The notes beneath the pieces are model-generated. The model saw nothing but the letters and a program-made list of their open reading frames with translations, ran no database searches and had not been told where the DNA came from. The translations under genes were made by a program, and so were the position numbers. This document shows positions 6,923 through 9,366 of a stretch of DNA of 64,000 nt, piece by piece. Origin of the DNA: a virus (taxonomy: Duplodnaviria > Caudoviricetes). The stretch spans positions 40,088 through 104,087 of the IMG/VR virus record IMGVR_UViG_641736147_000004; one strand, 5' to 3'. How positions within the stretch are numbered: the first letter of the stretch is position 1; each line of letters opens with the position of its first letter.

Positions 6923-6960
6923 TAACAAAAACTCCTAATATCATTAAATACTAGGAGTTT
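6923..6960 (-). terminator. Cassette terminator, family A copy 1
   Basis: Hairpin AAACTCCTA...TAGGAGTTT plus U tract; near-identical copies at 7800, 8590, 25907. Confidence 0.85.
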
Positions 6961-6961
6961 A

Positions 6962-7381
6962 CTATTCTTCGTAATATGAATTATCTTCGAGTATTGATGT
7001 TAAATCCTCAAAAATAAACTTATCTATTTGAATATTTCTCAATGTACAAGAAGCAATACTTAATGTTAATTGTATAGCCTGTTCATTGGTTAAATCTAAT
7101 TCAATGCCATTTATCCCAAGAAAAACCTTAGATACTGTTAGTCCAACTCTTTTATTGCCGTCTCTAAAACAATGCCCTTTAATGAAAAAATACATTAGCA
7201 TAGACGCCTTATTAAATATTGTTGGATACTTTTCGTAACCAAATGATGGATATTGTTGTGACAATATACTTTGTACTTTCCCATCAGTATTATCAAAATG
7301 TCCTAATTCCCCGCCAAATTCTTCAATAGTCTGTTGATGTATTAAAAAAATATCTTCTTTATCTAACGTTTCAATTATCAT
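6962..7381 (-). CDS. doc: Doc/Fic-family toxin
   Basis: Fic motif HCFRDGNKR; 139 aa; preceded by a small antitoxin-like ORF. Confidence 0.9.
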   Translation of the reverse strand: MIIETLDKEDIFLIHQQTIEEFGGELGHFDNTDGKVQSILSQQYPSFGYEKYPTIFNKASMLMYFFIKGHCFRDGNKRVGLTVSKVFLGINGIELDLTNEQAIQLTLSIASCTLRNIQIDKFIFEDLTSILEDNSYYEE

Positions 7382-7390
7382 AATAGTTTA

Positions 7391-7630
7391 TTATTTTGCT
7401 AATTCTTTCATTGCTCTAGCATATTTTTTATTGCATTTTTTTATAGCTTCTAGGACTTTTTTCTTGTTAGATTTTACATATTGGTTTGTATGTTTTCTTT
7501 CTACTACCATTTCCATATTCATTTCTCCCTCTGTTAACGAATTAACACCATCGTTTTGTTTGCATACCTTTTTCAGCTTGTCCAAGCCTATCTTAACGAA
7601 CTTTGAACTTGTCCAACGTTGTATCTTCAT
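7391..7630 (-). CDS. Putative Doc antitoxin with MKIQRWTS leader (internal start ~7516)
   Basis: SD AAGGAG before ATG 7630; second SD GAGGGAG before ATG 7516; C-terminal KYARAMKELAK resembles Doc-neutralising helices. Confidence 0.7.
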   Translation of the reverse strand: MKIQRWTSSKFVKIGLDKLKKVCKQNDGVNSLTEGEMNMEMVVERKHTNQYVKSNKKKVLEAIKKCNKKYARAMKELAK

Positions 7631-7659
7631 ATTACCACTCCTTGTCCCTATTTTCAATA

Positions 7660-7784
7660 AATTTATGGTAAAATATATAATTGTGTTATATTTTTTACTT
7701 AGATATAAATAAGTGATATTTCAGAATGTATTTGTAAATTATTTACATAATTATATTTTACCATAAATTGTTTATAAGTAGTAA
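7660..7784 (-). promoter_or_regulatory. Cassette promoter module 1: sigmaA-like promoter, palindrome, inverted repeat
   Basis: TTACTA-N18-TAAAAT with TG extension; palindrome TGTAAAT-T-ATTTACA 7733-7747; TGGTAAAATATA (7666-7677) inverted with 7752-7763. Confidence 0.7.
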
Positions 7785-7799
7785 TGATATTATTTTATA

Positions 7800-7837
7800 T
7801 AACAAAAACTCCTAATATCATTAAATACTAGGAGTTT
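7800..7837 (-). terminator. Cassette terminator, family A copy 2
   Basis: Identical to 6923-6960; contains the TAG stop of the upstream toxin. Confidence 0.85.
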
Positions 7838-8217
7838 TGTTTGTCTGAAGCAATTCTTTGTTCTGTATATTGTTCTAACACATAATCGTGGAATAACTTT
7901 TCAACTGTATCTAAGTCACTGGGATGCAAATCCCCTTTCTTTCTCTCGAACATATCTATAGGTAAATACATACTTTTAGAAGCTCTAGCTGTGGATTTCA
8001 TTTTCAGTTTAGCCTCTTTCCAATAAAATATTCTATAATCAAATTTATCTCTAGGTTCATGTTTAGTCACTTTAATGCTTAACACACCTATCTCTTCATC
8101 ATTTTCTTGTAGCACAATAACAGGACGTGGTTTTAATACAGGTTCATCTTCAAATGGAAATAGGGCATACCAAACCTCTCCTCTTTTCGGATGTTTATTT
8201 TGTTTCGCTTCTGTCAT
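7828..8217 (-). CDS. PemK/MazF-family toxin
   Basis: PKRGEVWYALFPFED...KPRPVIVL motif; likely start MTEAK at 8217 overlapping the antitoxin end. Confidence 0.85.
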   Translation of the reverse strand: MTEAKQNKHPKRGEVWYALFPFEDEPVLKPRPVIVLQENDEEIGVLSIKVTKHEPRDKFDYRIFYWKEAKLKMKSTARASKSMYLPIDMFERKKGDLHPSDLDTVEKLFHDYVLEQYTEQRIASDKQNS

Positions 8218-8422
8218 ATATATCGTCCCATTCATCTTCATCATTCCATTCATCGTCTTGAGAAATAATAGGTCTTCCCTTTGCATCTATTTTTATATTT
8301 CGCATTAGCATTTCTTTCAATGCAAATTTATTAATTCTTAAGCAATTTTCCATTTTAGCCCCCCCATTTCTTATATAAAATGCCCTTTTAATCTGTGAAC
8401 TTGTCCACTTCTTTAATTTCAT
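8195..8422 (-). CDS. Putative antitoxin with MKLKKWTS leader (internal start 8353)
   Basis: Acidic tail DDEWNDEDEWDDIYD; two SD-ATG pairs in frame; overlaps toxin start. Confidence 0.7.
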   Translation of the reverse strand: MKLKKWTSSQIKRAFYIRNGGAKMENCLRINKFALKEMLMRNIKIDAKGRPIISQDDEWNDEDEWDDIYDRSETK

Positions 8423-8452
8423 ATTACCACTCCTTATCCAACTTTTCAATGA

Positions 8453-8574
8453 AATTTTGGTAAAATATATGATATTATGTTATATTTTTGTATTTGTGCA
8501 TCTAATAATTTTATATTTTTTATGCAAATTATTTACATAATTATATTTTACCATATATTGGTTATAAGTAGTAA
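8453..8574 (-). promoter_or_regulatory. Cassette promoter module 2
   Basis: Near copy of 7660-7784: palindrome 8523-8537, inverted-repeat arms 8458-8469 and 8542-8553. Confidence 0.7.
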
Positions 8575-8589
8575 TGATATTATTTCATA

Positions 8590-8627
8590 TAACAAAAACC
8601 CCTAATATCGTTGAATACTAGGAGTTT
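8590..8627 (-). terminator. Cassette terminator, family A copy 3
   Basis: taacaaaaacccctaatatcgttgaatactaggagttt; overlaps toxin TAA. Confidence 0.8.
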
Positions 8628-8973
8628 AAAAATGTTGTTTGACAATTCTATTGATAACTTTATCAAAATCCTCATCTGTCATAACACCAATCTTTTTATA
8701 CAATTTATTAGATGGAATCTTGTACAATTTATTGACTTTTACAAATGACATTTTATCAAGCCCAGCTTCTTTCCACTTAACTATAGGTTTTTTGAACTTA
8801 TCAAAGTGTCCTGGTGGGTCTTTAGGTTTTGCACTAGTTATTTCAGAAATAGTGTACGAAGTTTCTTTATCAGTTACATTTTTATTAATTATTATGATAG
8901 GTCTGTTTTTTGCTTTCTCAATTTTATCTTCATAATAAATACGAACTATATAAATATCTTTAATATCTGCCAT
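8626..8973 (-). CDS. PemK/MazF-family toxin
   Basis: DIYIVRIYYED...KNRPIIII...ITS...W-EAGL-K-S-V pattern; 115 aa. Confidence 0.85.
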   Translation of the reverse strand: MADIKDIYIVRIYYEDKIEKAKNRPIIIINKNVTDKETSYTISEITSAKPKDPPGHFDKFKKPIVKWKEAGLDKMSFVKVNKLYKIPSNKLYKKIGVMTDEDFDKVINRIVKQHF

Positions 8974-8983
8974 ATATTAATAC

Positions 8984-9208
8984 CTATTCTTCATCCTCAT
9001 ACCAATCTTTATGATTAGGATTATTAGAATCTAATTCCACCATATTGTCCTTACCTGTTAACAAGGTAAGTTTAGCACTAATTTTATCTAGTGCTGATTG
9101 GATTTCTGGAGTTTTATGAAATACTACTTCCATATTATCTGCTCCTCTCTTATGTATCTTTAACTTGTACACCTTTTTATTAAAACTTGTCCAACGTTGT
9201 ATTTTCAT
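8984..9208 (-). CDS. Putative antitoxin with MKIQRWTS leader (internal start 9133)
   Basis: SD GGGGGTG before ATG 9208, SD AGAGGAG before ATG 9133; acidic end DWYEDEE; directly upstream of PemK-like toxin. Confidence 0.7.
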   Translation of the reverse strand: MKIQRWTSFNKKVYKLKIHKRGADNMEVVFHKTPEIQSALDKISAKLTLLTGKDNMVELDSNNPNHKDWYEDEE

Positions 9209-9244
9209 ATTAACACCCCCTACCTTATTTTTCAATAAAAATTC

Positions 9245-9366
9245 TGGTAAAATATATGGTACTATGATATATTTTTCTACTTAAATATAATTCACCAATA
9301 TTCTAGATTGTAATTGTAAATTATTTACACAATTATATTTTACCATAAATTGGTTAGGGTTTGTAA
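9245..9366 (-). promoter_or_regulatory. Cassette promoter module 3
   Basis: TTACAA-N18-TAAAAT with TG extension; palindrome 9315-9329; inverted-repeat arms 9245-9256 and 9334-9345. Confidence 0.7.

Follow-up and report, generated by a model that had tools for sequence, protein, structure and literature searches.

Toxin-antitoxin operons in one repeated regulatory frame, probably shuffled by recombination between repeats, in a relative of Clostridium phage c-st

Known systems and the present locus

In T4-type phages, repeated promoter-early stem-loop (PeSL) cassettes flank variable genes, and recombination inserts, deletes, or replaces these genes; according to Arbiol et al. (2010, PMC2839356), promoter and terminator activity as well as mini-circles have been demonstrated for them. 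Here we describe a locus that appears to work in a similar way. It lies in a 64-kb stretch of DNA, referred to as the window, that corresponds to bases 40088-104087 of the 104,087-bp virus record IMGVR_UViG_641736147_000004. The tail genes of the window are 82-96% identical to those of Clostridium phage c-st and 95-99% identical to those of the ~200-kb circular "plasmid p1" records of C. botulinum group III; judged by these genes, the window derives from a relative of c-st, a botulinum-type phage-plasmid. One such element, p1BKT015925, has been described as a neurotoxin-carrying prophage that persists in the form of a circular plasmid of 203 kb (Skarin et al. 2011, PMC3098183). Between two of its tail genes, for the Dit-type distal tail protein and the tail tape measure protein, the window carries a row of small two-gene units. 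Our reading, to which we assign a probability of roughly 0.7, is that these units are type II toxin-antitoxin (TA) operons, arrayed in one repeated regulatory frame and shuffled by recombination between the repeats.

How does the locus compare with the PeSLs? As far as the published account of PeSLs goes, the motif in both systems is an intergenic repeat that combines a terminator stem-loop with a sigma-70-type promoter and ends at the ribosome-binding site (RBS) and start codon of the next gene. Both motifs border nonessential variable genes, the insertions, deletions, and replacements seen among relatives end in them, and homologous recombination between motifs is the proposed route of shuffling. 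The differences are 4-fold. (i) The repeat is ~250 bp here, while the same account gives ~100 bp. (ii) The repeat here continues past the start codon and adds a translated, in-frame leader to the cargo protein. (iii) The leader-bearing frames hold two-gene TA modules only. (iv) The carrier, a relative of SPbeta and c-st, is a Gram-positive phage-plasmid, in which the activities are predicted from sequence. The PeSLs, reportedly the subject of Comeau et al. 2014, are the closest known system, one that would work alike by analogy and not by homology; relative to it, the in-frame leader and the TA-only cargo are new.

A second parallel is found in hyperpromiscuous antitoxin domains (Panacea/DUF4065, PanA), in which one antitoxin module is combined with toxins of several unrelated superfamilies. 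The locus resembles them in pairing one shared antitoxin module with unrelated toxins, but the shared part here is a leader of 23 to 39 residues without a Pfam family, not the neutralizing domain. Moreover, toxin specificity comes from the antitoxin that belongs to the cargo, the module would bring promoter DNA with it, and the leader is confined to a few C. botulinum phage-plasmids. The Panacea profile (PF13274) matches none of the leader-bearing antitoxins, its sole hit being a separate gene at 23719-24387.

One frame around unrelated cargo

The array consists of three head-to-tail units (A, B, and C, with spacings of 877, 790, and 792 bp) between the Dit and tape measure genes, and a fourth unit of the same frame, cassette D, lies at about 25898-26990. 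All genes of the array and of the cassettes discussed here are encoded on the minus strand. The whole record holds seven two-gene cassettes, four of them inside the window and three (E, F, and G) just beyond its edge. A preliminary description, made from the letters of the window, had recognized the three units and the fourth, and the spacings and three repeat families bear it out: a 120-nt family at 6841, 7718, 8508, and 9300, a 96-nt family at 7601, 8393, 9179, and 26827, and a 46-nt terminator segment at 6914, 7791, 8581, and 25898 whose copies are 87-100% identical.

What do the units share? The common parts are a terminator hairpin, a TGGTAAAAT promoter-like block, an RBS, and a leader that begins MKIQRWTS, with a shared segment that runs from the RBS through TGGACAAGTT. 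The repeated motif (families D1-D3, D8, and D9) thus described joins a terminator stem-loop to a sigma-70-like promoter and ends where the RBS and start codon of the following gene lie. Nine of the 10 cassette types keep the TGGTAAAAT/TATAAT block, whose promoter status is a consensus match only and which we take to be the putative promoter. TGGTAAAATAT occurs seven times in the window, where 0.29 are expected, and all seven copies lie within the four frames; in the whole record, 11 of 11 do. Where 0.5 terminator-like sites would be expected, 8 were counted, three of them at cassette ends. The terminator stems are 14-15 bp long and followed by T-runs, with folding energies of -13 to -19 kcal/mol (z -4.2 to -7.8). 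Both counts exceed chance, in keeping with the earlier claim of a shared promoter block, RBS, leader start, and terminator in every unit. The toxin stop codons, at 6962, 7828, 8626, and 25928, do abut or fall within the terminator, as had been reported. The isolated cassettes are preceded upstream by a second type of hairpin. RNAalifold found 0 conserved pairs in nine sequences of the 5' untranslated region.

The frame is conserved and the cargo is not. Across 10 cassette types, the 5' frames (-165 to +25) have a mean identity of 73% (60-90%) versus 55 +/- 2% for shuffles, while cargo DNA identity between cassettes is 52.7% versus 51.6 +/- 3.4% for shuffles. The sole exception to this unrelatedness is the D/E cargo, a pair of paralogues at 81%. 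One conserved promoter-leader-terminator frame with unrelated TA cargo, the central proposal of the preliminary description, is therefore upheld by frame and cargo identities.

Which TA families are represented? In cassettes A, B, C, F, and X, the gene for a small antitoxin immediately precedes, in the same orientation, one for a toxin of a known family, which is the type II layout. In the window, the earlier assignments of toxin A to Doc (Pfam Fic, 7.7e-16) and of toxins B and C to PemK (2.4e-5 and 1.8e-9) stand. That of cargo protein D to an extended PemK-like toxin does not: its Pfam E of 0.028 is below the cut-off, hhalign against the PemK cargo gives a probability of 1%, and the AlphaFold2 model has a predicted local distance difference test (pLDDT) score of 34. 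Outside the window, toxin F matches PemK (Pfam, 4.3e-6) and toxin X matches GNAT (2.5e-7); X and Y, both GNAT-type and known from relatives, are mutually homologous (1e-11). The family matches of cassette G (0.0023) and cassette Z (ParE, 0.0039) are weak, and RefSeq annotates the orthologues of F and G as PemK/MazF. Most plausibly, these TA pairs stabilize the plasmid prophage and/or abort competing phage.

The leader and its joint to the cargo

Where does the frame end and the cargo begin? Similarity had been said to end just after TGGACAAGTT, which was taken as a fixed 5' boundary. For DNA this holds in the window's four units, where similarity drops to the level of shuffles past TGGACAAGTT; the leader, however, persists beyond it as a diverged homologous peptide of 23-39 codons, and in some cassette pairs the shared DNA extends to about codon 20. 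Its pattern is MKIQRWTSS, then a basic stretch (e.g., NKKVYKLKK), then N-G-G-x-x-M. All 10 cassette types have an RBS, made up of the G-rich codons of this end, 6-10 nt before the internal ATG, and this second RBS and start codon, not TGGACAAGTT, is the functional joint to the cargo.

Comparison with leaderless antitoxins points the same way. Residues 26-73 of antitoxin C align with residues 1-49 of a 51-aa B. subtilis plasmid antitoxin (E 4e-10), so that Met26 pairs with Met1 of the Bacillus protein, whose neighbor is a PemK 48% identical to toxin C. Residues 40-79 of antitoxin A align with a 49-aa antitoxin adjoining a Paenibacillus Doc gene (E 0.002). A database relative of the D/E type (P0025) begins at the equivalent of Met32, which may merely reflect gene calling. 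By these alignments the internal ATG is the ancestral start of the cargo antitoxin, and the leader is an N-terminal add-on. On the B. subtilis plasmid NZ_CP061871.1 (L053 1220-1240), TGGTAAAAT is also present ~110 nt upstream of the antitoxin gene of the leaderless cassette C homologue, as would fit if the motif were simply a Firmicutes promoter of the extended -10 type.

In all cassette types the leader forms an uninterrupted reading frame in phase with the antitoxin, and its codon 5 is CGT, AAG, AAA, or AGG, an Arg/Lys swap that needs two to three base changes; on these grounds we regard it as translated. A competing promoter match, TTGAAA-17-TAATAT preceded by TG, spans the first start codon, and for this reason a second, leaderless transcript is possible. 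The leader as purely a 5' untranslated region driven by that promoter was considered as the sole reading and set aside, being contradicted by the in-frame opening and the Arg/Lys swaps. Both antitoxin start codons may be used.

What might the leader do? It could be a DNA-binding or regulatory arm that recognizes the repeated TGGTAAAAT sites of its own frame, the reading that we prefer but consider doubtful on balance. A larger version, somewhat less likely still, is that the frame is a plug-in TA expression adaptor whose leader arm reads TGGTAAAAT and cross-regulates all cassettes as one network. If true, the cassettes would be tied to one signal, the two start codons would yield leader-tagged and untagged antitoxin, and the leader would be a new promiscuous antitoxin module that takes its operator DNA along. 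IQRWTSS resembles VKRWGNS of E. coli MazE, a pairing chosen by hhalign without significance; like the MazE/AbrB domain, the leader is N-terminal on the antitoxin and has a basic, beta-hairpin-like pattern after the motif, but it is too short for the whole domain and lacks a significant profile match. The ESM Atlas gave no usable match to the leader, and AlphaFold2 on the Z antitoxin (16 sequences) reached a pLDDT of 64 overall and 54-56 in the leader. Roles as a capsid-targeting or degradation tag were considered and dropped.

The leader is rare. A word-indexed search of 5.8 billion proteins returned 16 leader proteins at E<=0.1, all named ones from C. botulinum, and an exhaustive search of 1.84 billion representatives returned 11 at E<=0.001; both searches miss diverged copies. 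The only leader-pattern stretch in the GTDB species genomes, a set that may lack close relatives, is in Sporosarcina, has no TA context, and was judged a chance match. The three named 203-208-kb records searched carry eight, five, and two frames. Two further ~200-kb C. botulinum plasmids, whose Dit is only 34% identical, also encode leader-bearing antitoxins; on these the leaders accompany GNAT toxins, and one leader belongs to a PHD_like antitoxin (1.2e-13, on pNPD1_1) that is followed by a small basic protein. Relatives have further types of leader-bearing antitoxin. Literature searches, judged by titles and the openings of abstracts, turned up no description of the frame, although supplementary tables of the group III genome papers may list these genes. 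In the main texts of PMC3098183 and of Skarin and Segerman (2014, PMC4177856), the words antitoxin, addiction, and PemK have 0 occurrences.

How the array changes

Among relatives, the flanks of the array are 95-99% identical and the content differs. From the tape measure gene to Dit, the window carries C-B-A, relative G003 carries C-B-Y-X-A, and NC_015417.1 carries C-B-X-A (an IMG/VR contig has at least C-B-X). NZ_CP063960.1 and contig L027 have an insertion sequence (IS) followed by Y-X-A, and NZ_CP063966.1 (BKT2873) has a decayed remnant only. Phage c-st has no array and 550 bp of unrelated DNA instead. The record and NC_015417.1 have their isolated cassettes in syntenic positions.

Where do these differences end? 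Compared with the five-cassette array, two deletions have both ends within the junction repeat. The B-A junction of the window tracks cassette B to the 5' stem of the terminator and then tracks the X-A junction, with the switch of partner inside the terminator stem or loop; in the B-X junction of contig L030, the switch lies further 3'. In c-st, cassette G joins an X-type leader (3 differences in ~63 nt) to a 99%-identical G cargo, which places the crossover within the leader, and chimeras of D leader and E cargo were also found. Finally, the slot downstream of the Panacea pair holds a Kiwa-like defense pair in the window (21478-23092, minus strand; KwaB, Pfam 1.8e-21, plus an upstream membrane protein) and TA cassette Z in NC_015417.1. 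This exchange lies exactly between two copies of the second hairpin type (21367-21431 and 23172-23236), with flanks 99% and 95% identical. The breakpoints fit homologous recombination between repeats, which the preliminary description had named as the simpler mechanism, and they indicate that the array changes in this way.

We propose the following course of events. The frame is repeated around accessory regions of a c-st-like Clostridium phage-plasmid. It begins with a strong hairpin terminator, followed by the TGGTAAAAT/TATAAT block as putative promoter of the extended -10 type, a predicted untranslated leader of ~125 nt, and an RBS; the translated leader comes next, with 23-39 codons and a second RBS and start codon at its end. 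A pre-existing TA pair would be joined to the frame at its own start codon, so that its antitoxin bears the leader as an in-frame N-terminal extension, and its toxin reading frame reaches or even enters the following terminator. Where cassettes stand in tandem, the terminator, promoter block, and leader make up a direct repeat of ~250 bp, and recombination between repeats would delete, add, or swap whole expression-ready modules, with crossovers possible within the leader too. Cassette capture may still be ongoing.

Could a site-specific recombinase do the same work? Integron and superintegron gene-cassette arrays often contain TA cassettes, and the preliminary description saw integron-like logic in this region. 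In such a platform, a recombinase would capture TA cassettes at fixed boundaries, with the hairpin as an attC-like site. The units are indeed small and tandem, with variable cargo, frequent TA pairs, and a hairpin-forming element at their 3' ends; toxin reading frames are fused to the hairpin, and two tyrosine recombinases and IS607/IS605 elements occur elsewhere in the record. However, no recombinase was detected among the 53 window open reading frames (ORFs) scanned, consistent with the earlier remark that no integrase is visible, and a Pfam scan of 94 record ORFs gives just two Phage_integrase hits, at record positions 13791-14780 and 15196-16032, both separated from the array by more than 30 kb. 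Neither attI nor an attC core was recognized, the 3' flank of the hairpin, GTTATAT, being a mismatch to the integron core consensus GTTRRRY. Every unit owns a promoter-like block and a terminator, with no common promoter; the order is collinear in all relatives, and there is no sign of first-position insertion. Crossover positions vary from event to event inside the shared repeats, which argues for homologous recombination and not for site-specific capture. We consider an integron-like platform highly improbable.

The constant order deserves attention of its own. Variable cargo, number, and order with fixed junctions had been the earlier expectation; among relatives the number and identity of cassettes do vary, but no array departs from the order C-B-Y-X-A, of which each is a subset, and crossovers wander within the repeat. 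What is documented is thus loss or gain by repeat recombination and not fixed-site capture. Is the region then a static legacy, an old five-cassette array plus isolated operons that only decays, with frames kept alike through selection rather than recombination? Apart from the ordered subsets, such a history would suit frames that are 60-90% identical, short of near-identity, and the distance of the cargo's outside relatives. It would also suit the NZ_CP063966.1 remnant (L050 1982-2397), an orphan antitoxin A core with the last Doc codons and the terminator but without promoter or leader start; its deletion ends outside the repeat and is a counterexample to motif-bounded change. Decay alone does not account for the X-type leader on the G cargo of c-st, the D-leader/E-cargo chimeras, the swap of Kiwa and cassette Z between hairpin copies, or the two deletions that end within the junction repeat. 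We hold it to be unlikely.

A further possibility is that the frame moves and the cargo stays, gene conversion having placed copies of a mobile promoter-leader segment ahead of TA operons already present. This would agree with a cargo that retains its own RBS and start codon, with one cargo seen with different leaders, with the synteny of isolated cassettes between the record and NC_015417.1, and with the presence of the leader frame on the distant ~200-kb phage-plasmids. It leaves unexplained both the presence or absence of whole cassettes with ends in junction repeats and the shared 3' terminator fused to toxin reading frames. As a replacement for repeat recombination we judge it rather more unlikely than decay; as an additional process, it is compatible with repeat recombination.

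What weighs against TA operons shuffled within one frame? The array junctions are 89-98% identical only over a terminator-proximal stretch of ~100 nt, the frames overall reaching just 60-90%. Since all arrays are ordered subsets with no permuted order, present-day change could be loss only, and the array states are not all independent because some IMG/VR contigs may equal named plasmid genomes. The closest relatives of the cargo outside are at most 48% identical, which means that captures are old or donors unsampled. No toxin family is supported for the cargo protein of D/E, for which an NCBIfam scan was empty too. Promoter-like matches in the region are not enriched (30 versus 23.4 +/- 5.5), and TTGAAA-17-TAATAT overlaps the first start codon in three of three array cassettes; were it the sole promoter, the leader start would be absent from the mRNA. 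As for the leader, there was no Pfam match at E<=0.1 for four of four window antitoxins and five further antitoxins, and a PDB profile search returned no related chain, only two mS23 ribosomal protein chains (E 0.085). The leader as a MazE-like element was tried with hhalign and rejected (probability 0.3%, E 0.19, 7 columns).

The cassettes of the window and their surroundings

The array is flanked upstream by the tape measure gene (9727-15075; Pfam PhageMin_Tail, 1.9e-22) and downstream by the Dit gene (6062-6856; Pfam DUF6558 N- and C-terminal domains, 2.5e-9 and 4e-11), which has a weak SPP1_Dit match and 95.8% identity to c-st. Homology to c-st stops at 6905, immediately past the cassette A terminator, and picks up again at 9739 on the tape measure side. 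The frames and terminators given below are on the minus strand, like the genes.

Cassette C comes first in the direction of transcription. Its 5' frame (9184-9346) was delimited by repeats and motifs and contains ATGGTAAAATATAA at 9333-9346, the inverted copy, TGGTAAAATAT, at 9245-9255 (plus strand), TTGAAA-17-TAATAT at 9235-9207, an RBS, and the first start codon at 9206-9208, with the leader start running through TGGACAAGTT at 9184-9193. Antitoxin C (8984-9208, 74 aa) has its leader in residues 1-25 and a second RBS, GAGAGGAG, just before the native start, Met26 (9131-9133). Toxin C (8626-8973, 115 aa), of the PemK/MazF family, has a stop codon that overlaps the first bases of the terminator. 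That hairpin (8581-8627; 14-bp stem plus T-run, repeat family D3; -14.5 kcal/mol, z -5.9) begins the C-B junction repeat.

The 5' frame of cassette B (8398-8554) has ATGGTAAAATATAA at 8541-8554, the inverted copy at 8458-8468, the first start codon at 8420-8422, and TGGACAAGTT at 8398-8407. Antitoxin B (8195-8422, 75 aa), without a Pfam family match, has the leader MKLKKWTSS..., then the internal RBS GGGGGGG and Met24. Toxin B (7828-8286), likewise of the PemK/MazF family, is 152 aa in its longest ORF; its RefSeq orthologue in NC_015417.1 has 129 aa, which would move the start to 8217. Its final four codons and TAG stop lie within the stem of the terminator (7791-7838; 15-bp stem, -19 kcal/mol, z -7.8), where the B-A junction repeat begins and where the crossover relative to the five-cassette array maps.

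In cassette A, the 5' frame (7606-7764) has ATGGTAAAATATAA at 7751-7764, the inverted copy at 7666-7676, the first start codon at 7628-7630, and TGGACAAGTT at 7606-7615. Antitoxin A (7391-7630, 79 aa) has a leader of about residues 1-37, followed by the internal RBS GAGGGAG and Met38. Toxin A (6962-7381, 139 aa) is a Doc (Fic/death-on-curing) protein, also by NCBIfam (DOC_P1, 6.1e-14), and its stop codon is one base away from the terminator at 6914-6960, which was identified by repeat family, stem, and folding. In relative G003 (L039 5509-5979), the Doc toxin has a 17-residue insertion and is 156 rather than 139 aa long.

The isolated cassette D is preceded by a second-type hairpin (AACTACTT...AAGTAGTT; 27020-27062, minus strand; -18.6 kcal/mol, z -7.4). 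Related copies at 21367-21431, 23172-23236, and 24586-24650 are repeats that border the slot in which Kiwa and TA cassette replace each other. The 5' frame of cassette D (26832-26981) has ATGGTAAAATATAA at 26968-26981, the first start codon at 26854-26856, TGGACAAGTT at 26832-26841, and no inverted second copy. An antitoxin-like protein (26596-26856, 86 aa; leader in residues 1-31, internal RBS GGGGTGA, Met32) is followed by the presumed toxin, cargo protein D (25928-26578, 216 aa), whose final five codons and stop lie within the terminator (25898-25943; 87% identical to the array terminator, -13.1 kcal/mol, z -4.2). In IMG/VR contig L026, the longest ORF at this position is only 106 aa.

Other accessory genes lie nearby, on the minus strand. 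A SocA/Panacea-domain antitoxin (2.5e-15; gene 23719-24387) and an overlapping 162-aa partner without a known family make up 23267-24387, a TA-like pair of its own that lacks the leader frame. A type III TA toxin, ToxN, is encoded at 24705-25283 (7.5e-48), and a C3-like ADP-ribosyltransferase exoenzyme gene, which we take to be typical of the c-st phage group, at 27145-27879, just upstream of cassette D (PF03496, 3.5e-53). Further away, 54378-56375 encodes a 665-aa protein with an RdRP-family match (3.2e-10), which could be a single-subunit phage RNA polymerase similar to YonO of SPbeta. Large operons are preceded by recurring repeats of 53-98 nt (15047-15292, 43652-43704, and 54113-54348; 77-96% identical), which might be promoters for this protein.

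Mobile-element and recombinase genes are found at 61711-63932 (minus strand) and at record positions 29976-31767 and 13791-16032. They include an IS200/IS605 element (TnpA and TnpB), another TnpB, and an IS607-type serine recombinase with TnpB adjoining cassette E; the two tyrosine recombinases of the record are far from the arrays. In c-st (L034), a TnpB-type IS stops right before the RBS of the cassette G leader and displaces the entire promoter block.

Significance for the c-st group

Overall, the locus would extend regulatory-cassette shuffling, so far known from T4-type phages, to the Gram-positive, neurotoxin-converting c-st group. The twist is that the shared repeat enters the coding region and would give every captured antitoxin the same N-terminal leader, an unannotated and narrowly distributed peptide found with at least three well-supported toxin superfamilies. 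This provides a testable account of how plasmid prophages may gain and lose stabilizing or defense modules, and such gain and loss of cassettes may bear on the stability of lysogeny in these elements.

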